Shown here: positions 11,511 to 31,990 of the stretch, piece by piece
Numbering within the stretch: position 1 is the first letter of the stretch
How the letters are laid out: each line of letters starts with the position of its first letter
Source of the DNA: Promethearchaeota archaeon
GTDB taxonomy: Archaea > Asgardarchaeota > Lokiarchaeia > Sigyniarchaeales > SOKP01
Direction of reading: 5' to 3'
Length of the DNA: 56,179 bases
NCBI GenBank assembly: GCA_048938025.1
Contig: JBHLMP010000023.1
Span: 1-56,179, forward strand
Position numbers and translations under genes: made by a program
The notes under the pieces: generated by a model
Database searches by the model: none
Seen by the model: the letters and a program-made list of their open reading frames with translations, nothing else
What the model was told of the DNA's origin: nothing

Positions 11511-12077
11511 ATGACAACTGAAGAAGTTAAAGAAAGTTTCATAAAAGAATACGTATTTAAGATTGTTTTACTTGGAGATGCTGCTGTGGGGAAAACAAGC
11601 CTTATTACGCAATATTGTGAAGGTTTCTTTGAAGAAGATTACAAACCGACGTTAGGTGCTAATATAATTCGTAAAGACGTGAATTTAGAAAATGTGAACA
11701 CGAAAGTTAGATTAATAGTGTGGGATTTAGCTGGACAAGAAAAATACAGTGTGATAAGGAGTATGTATTTTCAAGGATGTGTTGGTGCATTTTTAGTTTA
11801 TGATATTACGCGATATCATACATTTGATAGCATTAATTCAAAATGGTTAAAAGATTTCAAAAGATATGTAAAAAAAGAAGGGGCTTATATTTTAATTGGT
11901 AATAAGAGTGATTTAAAAGATCAGAGGGTTGTACCCAATGAAAAAGGCAAACAATTATCAGATGAAATTAAAGCAAGTAATTTTATTGAGACAAGTGCAA
12001 AGCTTGGAGAAAATATTGAAGAAGCATTCTCACTTTTAGTATATCAAATTTTGAAGAATCATGGCATAAATGTCTAA
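11511..12077 (+). CDS. Rab-like small GTPase
   Basis: GDAAVGKT, PTLG, WDLAGQE, NKSD, ETSAK. Confidence 0.95.
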   Translation: MTTEEVKESFIKEYVFKIVLLGDAAVGKTSLITQYCEGFFEEDYKPTLGANIIRKDVNLENVNTKVRLIVWDLAGQEKYSVIRSMYFQGCVGAFLVYDITRYHTFDSINSKWLKDFKRYVKKEGAYILIGNKSDLKDQRVVPNEKGKQLSDEIKASNFIETSAKLGENIEEAFSLLVYQILKNHGINV

Positions 12078-20111: not shown

Positions 20112-20639
20112 TTATTGTTTTGAAATTTTCTTTAAGATTTTTGTAGTTAATTCGATAAATGATTTTTCAACATTTTTCCCTGTTTTAGCGGATGTTATAA
20201 TTATATCCATGTTATTTTTTTTTGCAAATTCATTAGCGGCTTTATCAGTAATTTTAATTTTATCTTTTAAATCTGATTTATTCCCAATTAAAATGATAGG
20301 TTCATTTTCTCTATCTTTTTTAAAGCTTTGTATCCATTCGTCAAGTTTTTCATATGATTCTTTATTTGTCATATCATATAATAACAATGCTCCATTAGCT
20401 CCCTCTAAATATAATCTTCTGAGAGATTTAAAAGACTCTTGACCTCCTAAATCCCAAATTTGAGCAGATACCTCACCATATCCTGCTATATTCATATCTT
20501 TCTTTAGAAGATTAACTCCTAAGGTTGATTTGTAATTTTCTCTAAATTTATTTTCGATCCACCTGTAAAGCAACGAAGTTTTACCTACATTAGCCTCTCC
20601 AAGAAGAACTATTTTTATTATATATGTTGGTTCGCTCAT
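20112..20639 (-). CDS. Rab-like small GTPase
   Basis: GEANVGKT, STLG, WDLGGQE, NKSD, TSAK. Confidence 0.95.
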   Translation of the reverse strand: MSEPTYIIKIVLLGEANVGKTSLLYRWIENKFRENYKSTLGVNLLKKDMNIAGYGEVSAQIWDLGGQESFKSLRRLYLEGANGALLLYDMTNKESYEKLDEWIQSFKKDRENEPIILIGNKSDLKDKIKITDKAANEFAKKNNMDIIITSAKTGKNVEKSFIELTTKILKKISKQ

Positions 20640-20769: not shown

Positions 20770-21249
20770 TTATTCTTTTTGAAAAACTATCATAAATTCA
20801 CAGTATCCCTTATCAGATTGCAAACTACATTCTAATTCCTGGGCAAAGCAATGATGATCGCTTATTTTTTCCACAACTCCAGCTAGCAATCCCGCTTCGA
20901 ATGAACAAAAACTACCAGTTGTTTTGATCCCTTTATTAAGTAGATCTTTGATAGATGAATGCCCTTTCAACTTTAATTGAACAATTTCATCTGAACTATC
21001 TGTAATTTCAACATCTCCTAGACTATATTCCGAAATAGTCTTTTTTAATTCGTCAGGTATTTTATTTACATCAGTAATTTGTTCTACTTTTAGAATTGTC
21101 CCTAATTCATGCCCTAAATAATAAAAAATCGCTTCTAGTTGGTGTCCTAATGCTAATAAAGCACCAACCTTCATATCTCCTATCGATCTTCCTTCTTTTA
21201 AATTCTTTTTCATTTGAGCCAAAATTTTAGATAATAGTGGTCGATCCAT
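20770..21249 (-). CDS. V4R-domain protein
   Basis: YYLGHELG, FCSFEAGLLAGVVE, ELECSLQSDKGYCEF match the V4R signature. Confidence 0.85.
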   Translation of the reverse strand: MDRPLLSKILAQMKKNLKEGRSIGDMKVGALLALGHQLEAIFYYLGHELGTILKVEQITDVNKIPDELKKTISEYSLGDVEITDSSDEIVQLKLKGHSSIKDLLNKGIKTTGSFCSFEAGLLAGVVEKISDHHCFAQELECSLQSDKGYCEFMIVFQKE

Positions 21250-21313
21250 ACAAATTCACTTAAAATTTTATTCCTTCCTTTATTCAAATCTTTTTAATAT
21301 ATTTTATTTAAAA

Positions 21314-21613
21314 TTATATTTTTACAGATGCTATAAACGCATATAAAATTGCGTCAATTATATCTTCTTCTTGAATATTTACTGCTAATTTTTTTTCTGC
21401 TATAACTAATGTTGGCACAGAAGTGATTCGATATTCTTGTGTAAATCCTCGGTTTTCTTCAAGATCAATCAATATTTTTTCTATTTTTAATTTTTTTCCA
21501 AACAATGAAATATTTATTTTTTTCAGCATTTCTTCAACTGGCTTGCAAGGAGCGCAATGATTCGAAGAAAAAAATATTATCTTAGGATAATCTTGCTCGA
21601 AATATTCATGCAT
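21314..21613 (-). CDS. Thioredoxin-fold protein (CAPC)
   Basis: FFSSNHCAPCKP and cis-Pro motif ITSVPTL. Confidence 0.85.
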   Translation of the reverse strand: MHEYFEQDYPKIIFFSSNHCAPCKPVEEMLKKINISLFGKKLKIEKILIDLEENRGFTQEYRITSVPTLVIAEKKLAVNIQEEDIIDAILYAFIASVKI

Positions 21614-21617
21614 TTTA

Positions 21618-22186
21618 TTAGTCTTCTTTATATCTATAATATAAATCTTTAATTATTGCTTGAAATGCTTTATATACTCCAGTTCCTGTTTTAGCGCTTG
21701 TTCTATAATATCCAAGAAAATTTCTTTCTTTTACAATTTCGTTAGCTTTCTCATCATCTAAATCCTCTTTATTGATTAAATCAATTTTGTTTCCGAATAA
21801 GACTATTGGGAGATCACCGCAATACTTTATAATATCATTATGCCATTGAGGGATATGTTCAAAACTCTCATCATCAGTATGGGAATATACTATAATTGCT
21901 GCTTTGCTTCCTTTATAGAAGGTAGGACGCATGAAATTGAATTCATCCTGACCAGCAATATCCCAGAAAAATAATTTACAATTATCTCCTTCAATCTCCT
22001 CATCATATTTTGAAAATTGCGCCCCCAAGGTCTTAATGTAGTCCCTTTGAAAACTGCCTTGAGTGTATTTTTTGATTAATGAGGTTTTTCCTACTGCTCC
22101 GTCGCCAATAAGTCCACTCTACTGAACTTTTTCAGTAGATCTGTGATTTTGAAGACGAAGCCTTTTTTATCTTCATTATTTCTCAT
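21618..22186 (-). CDS. Rab-like small GTPase split by a 29-nt intron-like insertion (exon 1 22186-22141, exon 2 22111-21618; 179 aa joined)
   Basis: Joined frame MRNNEDKKGFVFKITVIGDGAVGKTSLIKKYTQGSFQRDYIKTLGAQF...WDIAGQD...NKID...TSAK. The ORF track shows only the P-loop-less part. Confidence 0.9.
22112..22140 (-). other. Bulge-helix-bulge type mRNA intron (29 nt)
   Basis: mRNA UCAC-AG^A-UCUACUGAA-AAAG-UUCAGUAGA-GUGG-AC^U: 4-bp helix UCAC/GUGG, two 3-nt bulges, 9-bp intron stem, exon-exon stem GCUUCGUC/GACGGAGC. Canonical cuts restore the frame. Confidence 0.85.
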
Positions 22187-22281
22187 TTAAATCACTCTGT
22201 AAAATTTTTTTTCCGAATAAATCTATACTATTGCTTTAAAATTTCAAAAGTATAAGATATTATTTAATTATTTATTTTTAT

Positions 22282-22800
22282 TTGTTATTAATTTATATTT
22301 ATGCTATTTTTTATAATAATAATAAATTGTTTTTAATGTTTCCATGGAGAGATATGAGTCAAGATATAAACGAAATGAAGTTCTGTGAAAGCTGCAAAAT
22401 GAATGTTTTTCCATCAAGACCAAAATTTAATATTAAAATATTTGGATTATTTATCATCCTCATCTCAGCAATACTTATCCCTTTAACAATTGTATCTATA
22501 CCGCTTTTATCAGGGTTCTTTATTTTTCTTTTTATAATGTATGGCTTTATGTTTATTAACCCCTATCTCATCTATTATGGTATTAAGAAAAAACAGAATT
22601 GCCCTAGATGTTTTCAGAAAGTTGTTGAAAAAAATTTGCAATACCAACCTTTTGGAGAAAAAGATCCAGAAGTATTTAAATCCCTAGCCCCTGTTAAAAA
22701 ACCTGCTACAAAAGTGTTTTGTCCTTACTGTGGAAATCCTATGAGCAAAAAGGGACAATATTGTAAGTTATGTGGTAAAAAATTTGAGATAAAAAGGTAA
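22282..22800 (+). CDS. LITAF-like split zinc-ribbon membrane protein with a C-terminal zinc ribbon
   Basis: CESC-[hydrophobic hairpin]-CPRC, then CPYC/CKLC. True start probably ATG 22336 or 22354. Confidence 0.65.
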   Translation: MLLIYIYAIFYNNNKLFLMFPWRDMSQDINEMKFCESCKMNVFPSRPKFNIKIFGLFIILISAILIPLTIVSIPLLSGFFIFLFIMYGFMFINPYLIYYGIKKKQNCPRCFQKVVEKNLQYQPFGEKDPEVFKSLAPVKKPATKVFCPYCGNPMSKKGQYCKLCGKKFEIKR

Positions 22801-22809
22801 TGATGTAAT

Positions 22810-23283
22810 TTGGCTCTTTTAAGAAGAATCGAGAAGATAATTAAAAATTTTTCAGAAAAAAATATTCGAATTGCTGTCGCAGAATCATGCACAGGAGGTT
22901 ATATTTCCAATATGTTTACCAATGTTTCGGGAGCTTCAAATGTATTTGAAAGAGGTATTGTCTGCTATAGCAATCAGGCAAAAATAGACCTATTAAATGT
23001 AGATCCTAAAGCAATCGAAAAAAATGGTGCTGTATCGAAAGAAATTGTAGTAACATTAGCCAATAATATTAGAATACAATCAAATGTAGAGATAGGTATT
23101 GGTGTTAGTGGTATAGCAGGTCCGACTGGTGGGACACCAGAAAAACCAGTAGGACTTGTCTTTATTGGTTTTTCGAATGAAAAAGAAACTATTGTGGAGA
23201 AATACAATTTCAAGACAGATCGAATAACATTTAAAAAGAAAGTATTAGAAAAAGTACTCCAATATATTGAAAAATTAATTTAG
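22810..23283 (+). CDS. CinA C-terminal domain / NMN deamidase (PncC-like)
   Basis: AVAESCTGG, SGAS, YSNQAK, GAVS, GIAGPTGG, KPVGLV. Confidence 0.92.
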   Translation: MALLRRIEKIIKNFSEKNIRIAVAESCTGGYISNMFTNVSGASNVFERGIVCYSNQAKIDLLNVDPKAIEKNGAVSKEIVVTLANNIRIQSNVEIGIGVSGIAGPTGGTPEKPVGLVFIGFSNEKETIVEKYNFKTDRITFKKKVLEKVLQYIEKLI

Positions 23284-31459: not shown

Positions 31460-31990
31460 ATGTACGACGCAACATACAAAGTAGTAATATTCGGTGATGC
31501 GGGAACAGGGAAAACTACCTTAACCCAAAGGTTCCTAACAAATTTGTTTAAATCAGATTCTAAGATGACAATAGGAGTGGATTTTGAAGTAAAAAGTTTG
31601 GAAATTAATGAAAAGAAAGTAAAACTTCAGATCTGGGATTTTGGAGGTGAAGAGAGGTTTAGATTCTTGTTGCCAACATATGTTAGGGGCGCAAATGGCG
31701 CTCTCTTCATGTACGATATCACAAATTACTCGAGTTTGGCTCACATAGATGATTGGTTATTAGTTGTTAAAAAAGAAATTAGATCGGAAGATCAATTTCC
31801 TGTTATTGTAGTTGGCGGGAAAGCAGATTTAATTGATGATCGTGAAATCTCTGGAGAGGAAGGAATTAATATTTCAAAATCAAGAGGAGTAGACGGTTTT
31901 ATTGAGTGTAGTTCTAAAACAGGAGAAAATGTTGAAGAAACATTTGAAGCACTAACAAGATTAATGATGCAAAAATCTAATCTGCTTTAG
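31460..31990 (+). CDS. Rab-like small GTPase
   Basis: GDAGTGKT, TIGVDF, WDFGGEERF, GKAD, CSSK. Confidence 0.95.
   Translation: MYDATYKVVIFGDAGTGKTTLTQRFLTNLFKSDSKMTIGVDFEVKSLEINEKKVKLQIWDFGGEERFRFLLPTYVRGANGALFMYDITNYSSLAHIDDWLLVVKKEIRSEDQFPVIVVGGKADLIDDREISGEEGINISKSRGVDGFIECSSKTGENVEETFEALTRLMMQKSNLL

Follow-up and report, generated by a model that had tools for sequence, protein, structure and literature searches.

A probable bulge-helix-bulge intron in a small-GTPase mRNA of a Promethearchaeota genome and its patchy occurrence among relatives

The minus strand of contig JBHLMP010000023.1 (Promethearchaeota archaeon, assembly GCA_048938025.1), analyzed here as a window that comprises the whole stretch of 56,179 nt, carries a Ras-family GTPase gene split one codon ahead of the P-loop by a 29-nt insert with the geometry of an archaeal bulge-helix-bulge (BHB) intron. 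All coordinates are positions in the window, and the source genome is referred to as G000. Read without splicing, the frame opened by the ATG ends at a stop codon at 22093-22091 and gives an open reading frame (ORF) of 31 aa, while 163 residues are encoded in another frame from 22109 to 21621. Exon 2 matches the Pfam Ras profile (PF00071) at 1.4e-44 over profile positions 5-160 of 162; as the match begins at position 5, only the first beta-strand is missing from this exon. Scripted removal of exactly 22112-22140 produces a 540-nt ORF of 179 aa, in which the beta-strand comes from exon 1 and the split Val codon is completed. The initial annotation had described an insert that splits a GTPase gene before the P-loop and whose removal restores the frame; the coordinates, the sequence, the 31-aa unspliced ORF and the restored frame were all reproduced, as were the three uninterrupted paralogues it had noted in the window (Table 1). 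About 45 other small-GTPase loci are found in G000.

The translation shows P-loop, DxxGQ, NKxD and SAK motifs, which together with the PF00071 match place the predicted product in the Ras superfamily. Members of the Rab family proper group with eukaryotic Rabs and have Rab-specific motifs and C-terminal prenylation cysteines. The C-terminus found here has no cysteine motif, so by these general features a classical Rab is not favored; the predicted product is a member of Pfam Ras, and the label "Rab-like" used initially is not established. The arrangement of GUGAU, four nucleotides and AUG at the start of the gene is present in nearly all orthologues whose junction region was read. The next canonical start inside exon 2 is a TTG at 22028, which would yield a 136-aa protein without a P-loop. 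This exact sequence is present in a public protein collection, i.e. it is the product of a public gene call.

The RNA around the insert can be drawn in the strict hBHBh' form of the motif: a 4-bp helix lies between two 3-nt bulges on opposite strands, with an inner stem paired at 9/9 positions and an outer helix between the exons paired at 13/15. The insert itself consists of the last base of the 5' bulge, the 9-bp hairpin with the loop AAAG, the 3' strand of the central helix and two bulge bases. The archaeal splicing endonuclease EndA cleaves behind the second nucleotide of either bulge; in this gene no other positions restore the Val codon and the reading frame. Both the fold (UCAC/GUGG, bulges AGA and ACU, 9-bp stem, 4-nt loop) and the coincidence of canonical cut sites with frame-restoring junctions had been read from the letters beforehand, and both hold in silico, with cuts at 22141/22140 and 22112/22111. 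The 86-nt region folds at -27.2 kcal/mol, compared with -13.0 +/- 2.8 kcal/mol in 200 shuffles (z = -5.1), none of which is as stable (0/200). In a genome-wide scan that combines the BHB motif with ORF restoration, the site scores 40 among 26,683 candidates, where the 99.9th percentile is 37 and the maximum 43; it ranks fifth and is the first candidate whose junction rebuilds a recognizable protein motif, the P-loop. A search of positions 21000-23000 against Rfam returned 0 matches at E <= 1.

Comparison within the genus covered 54 genomes, each with one orthologue (73-94% identity), and the junction region was read in all of them. The gene is uninterrupted at exactly this point in 45/54. The 29-nt insert, referred to as type A, occurs in three: G000, G012 and G065. 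The independent contig L133 carries the G012 variant of the same insert, which rules out an assembly error. With copies in the separate assemblies G012, L133, G065 and, outside the genus, G121, the insert is genomic, and an assembly artifact is excluded. The three type-A sequences differ by the replacement of a C-G pair with U-G or U.C, of a U-A pair with A-U and of a U.G pair of the central helix with U-A, and by an altered loop. Despite these differences 98.7% of 78 cells are paired, against 33-55% when the partners are slid by 1-3 columns; by part, pairing amounts to 100% in the central helix, 96% in the inner stem and 100% in 13 pairs of the outer helix. One pair shows compensatory change, a level reached by 142/500 shuffles and, with three sequences, weak by itself. 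The geometry of a 4-bp helix and two 3-nt bulges holds in all the other carriers too.

Six further members of the genus set (G013, G020, G048, G049, G068 and G069) contain an unrelated 30-nt BHB insert, type B, located 2 nt upstream inside a Thr codon. It has the central helix GAUY/GAUY, bulges ACU and A-N-N and a variable hairpin; its outer helix does not abut the bulge, which makes it a relaxed form. All 24/24 cells of the central helix are paired. In the inner stem 5/9 pairs are changed on both sides (7 cells), which 0/500 column shuffles reach. Splicing by the same rule rebuilds the Thr codon, and geometry, covariation and frame restoration together suggest that type B is likewise an intron. 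Around the junction, 17 residues of the spliced products are identical in 9/9 cases to those of the 45 intron-less genes. Alignment of the orthologues, which the initial annotation had named as a check on intron presence and compensatory change, thereby gives 9/54 carriers and compensated pairs in the type-B inner stem.

An in-frame TAA or TAG stands at the same codon, in the hairpin loop, of 6/6 type-B introns (loci L007, L024, L044, L046, L047 and L048), so that an unspliced mRNA would never be read through. These stops, and the stable hairpin just after the break, bear on the idea that the insert is retained in the mRNA and that the ribosome either bypasses it, as in phage T4 gene 60, or changes frame in a programmed manner. 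A hairpin followed by a stop would be in keeping with bypassing, but the Val codon is split and exists only after exact removal of the 29 nt, and no matching take-off and landing codons stand in the right frame (as judged by eye against the known bypass signals, with no tool search). A frameshift inside the insert would separate beta-strand 1 from the P-loop by about 10 foreign residues, and the in-frame stops are found not just in type B but also in the inserts labeled C and D. We consider such an explanation extremely improbable.

Exon 2 is open in 9/9 carriers of the genus. Between carriers dN/dS is 0.03-0.11 at dS from 0.33 to 2.4, with values of 0.08-0.11 for exon 2 of G000 against the other carriers; comparisons of a carrier with an intron-less sister give 0.05-0.10, the same range as carrier against carrier. 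These ratios point to strong purifying selection on exon 2, and the pseudogene-like decay that the initial annotation had regarded as fatal to its proposal is not seen. They also speak to the alternative of a dead gene, in which the GTPase was inactivated by insertion of a short palindrome that resembles a BHB by chance. The ORF is indeed broken when unspliced, the other small-GTPase loci of the genome could compensate for its loss, and gene callers give a truncated protein, the 136-aa sequence in the public collection. Against this stand the intact exon 2 in nine genus carriers over dS up to 1.4-2.4, the retention of the intron structure through compensatory changes, the conservation of the start codon, the Shine-Dalgarno-like site and exon 1, and the existence of independent inserts at four positions, described below, all of which restore the frame under the same rule. 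A dead gene is therefore very unlikely.

The distribution of the introns is patchy. In a maximum-likelihood tree of exon 2 the carriers are scattered: the intron-less G043, the closest relative (94% identity), is placed next to G000 and G012; three type-B carriers each stand beside an intron-less sister; G020, of type B, is nested among intron-less genes of another clade; and G065, of type A, is far from G000. Carriers share the synonymous codons that enable pairing, an Ile codon ending in C for type A and AAG-AUY for type B, where intron-less neighbors differ. The gene of G020 is a clear recombinant, with the signature of a tract that carries the intron. Over the first ~90 nt it has 2-5 differences per 30 nt from the type-B carriers in the other clade and 8-11 from its own clade, whereas in the rest of the gene the relation is reversed (6-13 and 0-4, respectively). 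Around the type-A intron, G065 and G000 show a similar but shorter tract. Precise loss of an intron may be explained by conversion from an intron-less allele. Loss by reverse transcription of spliced mRNA has been proposed for the cbf5 intron in the available portion of that study (PMC2738675), and the two routes are indistinguishable in the present data.

This distribution also bears on whether the intron is a regulated switch, that is, whether splicing by EndA and the ligase RtcB is conditional and the GTPase made only under some conditions, in the manner of XBP1/HAC1, the intron itself being real all the same. Versions of 29 and 31 nt shift the frame, the in-frame stops of all six type-B introns preclude read-through, and carriers retain the synonymous codons that maintain pairing; a negative regulatory role has moreover been proposed for the cbf5 intron, as far as the available text of that paper goes (PMC2738675). 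We regard a switch as unlikely, however, because the 45 uninterrupted orthologues include the closest relative G043, an intron-less sister stands next to almost every carrier in the gene tree, and tRNA splicing by EndA is constitutive as far as known. Most likely the intron is no dedicated switch but a passenger that is tolerated and close to neutral, and through it expression of the gene comes to depend on the enzymes of tRNA splicing.

Introns of the same family are present outside this set of orthologues. Covariance models of both types were run against the 54 genus genomes. The type-B model recovered the six known copies at 68-76 bits, with the next match at 21 bits. The type-A model (R2) recovered the three known copies at 77-79 bits and two new ones, in G061 (65 bits) and G013 (62 bits), which occupy the same codon position in a paralogous GTPase gene whose protein is 59% identical. 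By a hand count the paralogue intron is ~83% identical to that of G000, and the flanks match as well. The paralogue is found in 41/54 genomes, G000 not among them; only in G013 and G061 does it have a short open frame, and 28 of 30 fetched orthologues are uninterrupted. G013 consequently has two different introns in two paralogues, type B at C97:90061-90109 (L024) and type A at C82:13862-13909 (L177). Matches to R2 of 25-30 bits in G006, G048, G104 and G145 lack a GTPase context and were dropped as noise; one more match, in G119, scored 26.5 bits. In G000 itself a blastn-short search for further copies of the type-A intron returned only the self match below E = 1.

At the level of the order, the type-A model was applied to a sample of 151 genomes. 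The orthologue of G121, which belongs to another genus, has a 29-nt intron (60.7 bits) and keeps the thioredoxin-like downstream neighbor (L210). That of G142, again from another genus, has a 31-nt version of type A (40 bits) and a second intron of 29 nt between the switch-II motif and the following strand, with AAUU/GAUU as its central helix, UAA and AUA as bulges and four outer pairs; splicing it out by the same rule brings the exons back into frame. In a protein search across the family, 124/135 genomes had an orthologue at E <= 1e-68; ten genomes of the family without a close orthologue have paralogues only (55-68% identity). In G071, from another genus, a 30-nt in-frame insert with a stop codon lies inside the DxxGQ motif (L214:469-498); it forms the central helix GACA/UGUU with bulges UUU and AAG and five outer pairs, and the frame is again restored by the same rule. 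Matches with stops inside them in G148 and in the G069 paralogue proved to be natural stop codons, not introns. Interrupted genes number 11 among the 124 orthologues at E <= 1e-68, and G142, with its two introns, falls below the threshold and makes a twelfth. Four intron positions are represented, and all of the introns obey the same cutting rule. These occurrences moderately favor mobile BHB mini-introns that enter several sites around the nucleotide-binding motifs, spread between species and paralogues together with short flanks, and are lost precisely.

The genome of G000 (3.52 Mb in 88 contigs, 29% G+C, rated 97% complete) encodes enzymes that could carry out the splicing. The closest orthologues occur in public records titled Promethearchaeota or Promethearchaeia archaeon, names that NCBI taxonomy equates with Lokiarchaeota, of the Asgard group. 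There are two separate EndA-family genes (PF01974, 105 and 70 bits) and one RtcB (PF01139, 566 bits). The EndA genes lie in the regions of C66:88427-88651 and C33:14707-14955, and RtcB lies at C68:33115-34422. A pair of EndA genes fits the (alpha-beta)2 enzyme reported for Asgard archaea, in which a loop widens the substrate range (Kaneta et al., PMC5829648, available in part). Aragorn finds 32 tRNA genes, some with odd anticodons, and calls introns in 18 of them, which implies that the splicing machinery is heavily used. As a separate observation, 32 is a low number of tRNA genes for a genome of this rated completeness; many are probably interrupted at non-canonical positions and missed by the program.

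From this anatomy, its conservation and the enzyme complement, it is highly probable that the 29-nt insert is a genuine BHB intron and is spliced out of a small-GTPase mRNA. Before splicing, the terminal bases of exon 1 and the 3' end of the insert would be paired as the 4-bp helix between the two bulges; a heteromeric (alpha-beta)2 EndA would then make its cuts behind the second nucleotide of either bulge, and RtcB would join the exons and probably circularize the 29-mer. The product would be an mRNA for the intact 179-aa GTPase, where unspliced RNA would give the 31-aa peptide only. Cleavage, ligation and translation of the spliced product are expected here from sequence. The intron would be one of a small group of 29-31 nt mini-introns that occupy at least four positions in a Lokiarchaeota-type GTPase family, and frequent gain and loss may have come about at least partly by homologous recombination that moves an intron with its exon flanks between species and paralogues. 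The initial proposal of an EndA-type mRNA intron in an Asgard small GTPase is thus borne out by the same intron elsewhere with structure-preserving changes, by introns at three other positions and by the presence of two EndA genes and RtcB.

Several observations weigh against this interpretation or limit the evidence for it. The cutting rule of EndA was applied from established knowledge. When compared with the tRNA introns called by aragorn, whose boundaries are not based on the BHB motif, the rule gives an exact match in 1/18; in a weak check of the same 18 regions, it rescues 8 to an intron-less tRNA, compared with 4 for the mirror geometry. In the minimum free energy (MFE) structure of the G000 RNA the inner and outer helices are retained but the four central positions are paired slightly differently, which makes the strict BHB a near-optimal fold and not the MFE itself. 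The type-B, type-C and paralogue introns have z-scores of -0.1 to -2.1, and their MFE structure is often not a BHB; type-B RNA is not unusually stable, and that of G013 has z = -0.1 and an MFE structure that is not a BHB. Loose BHB-like motifs in the genome number 19,531, against 19,661 in the mirror-image control, and since they are no commoner than in the control, the motif alone proves little. RNA data consist of two sediment metatranscriptome runs that share 0.10-0.11 of the sequence words, and the sole match is one 151-nt contig at 21623-21773, far from the junction, a result that is neutral as to splicing. Finally, 45 of the 54 congeners do without the intron, so the intron need not have a function.

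Table 1. Positions in the window of the interrupted gene, the predicted RNA structure and neighboring genes
Feature	Position	Strand	Remarks
Shine-Dalgarno-like GUGAU	22191-22195	minus	four bases 5' of ATG; sequence reading
ATG start codon	22184-22186	minus	sequence reading
Exon 1, 46 nt	22141-22186	minus	15 codons and first base of Val codon; N-terminus, most of beta-strand 1
BHB intron type A, 29 nt (predicted)	22112-22140	minus	absent in 45/54 genus orthologues; covariance model R2 79.4 bits
Exon 2, 494 nt including stop codon	21618-22111	minus	last two bases of Val codon, P-loop, switch regions, NKxD, SAK
Outer exon-exon helix, 5' strand	22147-22161	minus	pairs with 22096-22110, 13/15 positions
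Central helix, 5' strand UCAC	22143-22146	minus	exonic; pairs with 22114-22117
5' bulge AGA	22140-22142	minus	predicted cut between 22141 and 22140
Inner hairpin	22118-22139	minus	perfect 9-bp stem, 22131-22139 with 22118-22126; 4-nt loop AAAG 22127-22130
Central helix, 3' strand GUGG	22114-22117	minus	intronic; pairs with 22143-22146
3' bulge ACU	22111-22113	minus	predicted cut between 22112 and 22111
Outer exon-exon helix, 3' strand	22096-22110	minus	within P-loop codons
Thioredoxin-like gene	21314-21613	minus	downstream of interrupted gene
V4R/DUF2507-like gene	20770-21249	minus	downstream of interrupted gene
Uninterrupted Ras-family paralogue	20112-20639	minus	in window, downstream of interrupted gene
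Uninterrupted Ras-family paralogue	11511-12077	plus	in window
Uninterrupted Ras-family paralogue	31460-31990	plus	in window

Scans of G000 found no second convincing mRNA intron, though they miss short exons and relaxed motifs. One BHB scan required both exons open, for >= 30 and 40 codons, closed unspliced frames and no start codon near the 3' site; it gave 4,103 candidates, of which the top 40 loci are noise-like, and short exons and relaxed motifs are invisible to it. A Walker-A scan of 120 ORFs yielded five more small-GTPase ORFs without a canonical start, none of them with a convincing BHB upstream. An Arf-like GTPase at C51:101740-102260 (minus; L134/L136) lacks any ATG, GTG or TTG in the interval from the in-frame stop to the P-loop, and this lack is repeated in 30 fetched orthologues; most of the 51 listed genus orthologues have a 159-aa open frame. 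Directly 5' of the gene lies a conserved hairpin of ~35 nt followed by GGUUGAU. A 40-nt candidate intron before this gene (C51 102216-102255) was rejected: the upstream GTG is not conserved, the central helix would consist of three G.U pairs and one A-U, and its hairpin is a conserved leader element in 30/30 fetched orthologues. Four more small-GTPase ORFs that lack a canonical start between the upstream stop and the P-loop, at C11:56075(-), C38:49029(-), C52:72118(-) and C87:66252(+), could have non-canonical starts or hidden, very short first exons; in the C52 ORF an ATA stands at the usual distance from a GUGAU site. At C31:6221-6700(+) (L135), a GTPase domain without its N-terminal half continues in frame into a second, complete GTPase domain, and no P-loop lies upstream of the half-domain in any frame.

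BHB introns in archaeal mRNA are a known kind of element, and what is new here is the host gene, the lineage, the number of positions, the polymorphism within a genus, the spread between paralogues, the gene with two introns and the recombinant flanks. An intron of this type in the cbf5 pre-mRNA of Crenarchaeota was reportedly described by Watanabe et al. in 2002. The accessible part of a later account places a BHB-like intron in cbf5, which encodes a pseudouridine synthase, of Desulfurococcales and Sulfolobales, where it is cut by EndA, disrupts a catalytic codon and has been lost in some lineages (Yokobori et al. 2009, PMC2738675). To the extent that this text allows comparison, both cases involve a non-spliceosomal intron in the size range of tRNA introns, in a protein-coding ORF, recognized by EndA at a BHB-type structure, in hosts with a hetero-oligomeric EndA; in both the region of an essential codon is disrupted, splicing is obligatory for function and loss is lineage-specific. 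They differ in gene and lineage, a small GTPase of Lokiarchaeota/Asgard as opposed to cbf5 of Crenarchaeota. As far as cbf5 is covered there, the motif is only "BHB-like", whereas it is strict in the G000 gene, and cbf5 has a single position, inferred to be ancestral with few losses, whereas the GTPase family has at least four, patchy within a genus. The GTPase family also includes the same intron in two paralogues, a two-intron gene and a carrier with recombinant flanks.

In the excerpts available, Schwarz et al. 2020 (PMC7714728) describe a BHB intron in the 5' UTR (untranslated region) of the Haloferax volcanii HVO_1309 mRNA and name cbf5 as the only other mRNA intron reported. HVO_1309 is similar in that an mRNA serves as EndA substrate; according to the same excerpts, its intron lies in an untranslated leader, leaves the frame uninterrupted and was shown experimentally, while splicing of the GTPase mRNA is predicted. 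No report of BHB introns in protein-coding genes of Asgard archaea was found in the full-text literature, subscription journals and supplements being beyond reach. Asgard tRNA genes are heavily interrupted according to the available part of one study (PMC11291895), and the partial texts of this and a 2026 preprint on Asgard tRNA genes (10.64898/2026.10.13.758758) indicate repeated, apparently independent gains, as in the GTPases; the available text of the preprint contains no mention of mRNA, GTPases or cbf5. Introns of archaeal tRNA and rRNA have the same motif and a similar length and presumably depend on the same enzymes, EndA and RtcB. In the GTPase family, by contrast, the introns sit in an mRNA, where the choice of cut sites is further constrained by the need to keep the reading frame. 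Outside archaea, the XBP1/HAC1 mRNAs undergo non-spliceosomal, stress-regulated cytoplasmic splicing by IRE1 at twin stem-loops, with an RtcB-type ligase in animals. Here too the intron is short, shifts the frame in its 29- and 31-nt versions and would be followed by RtcB-type ligation, but the 30-nt versions keep the frame, and EndA acting on a BHB would take the place of IRE1. The GTPase structure is a BHB and not a pair of stem-loops (the genome was not searched for IRE1).

The interrupted GTPase represents a second protein-coding host gene besides cbf5. It comes from a different phylum, the closest one to eukaryotes, and its gene family is included in the eukaryotic signature proteins. Because gene callers miss or truncate interrupted genes, the numbers of GTPases and "pseudogenes" given for Asgard genomes may be off, and a BHB-aware gene finder is warranted for them. 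The introns provide direct material on an old problem, the gain and loss of introns by coding genes that have no spliceosome to rely on. If they are indeed mobile mini-introns, splicing of protein-coding transcripts by EndA and RtcB would be active and ongoing in the archaeal lineage closest to eukaryotes, and the family would provide a natural system in which intron gain and loss in coding genes can be watched at the level of species.

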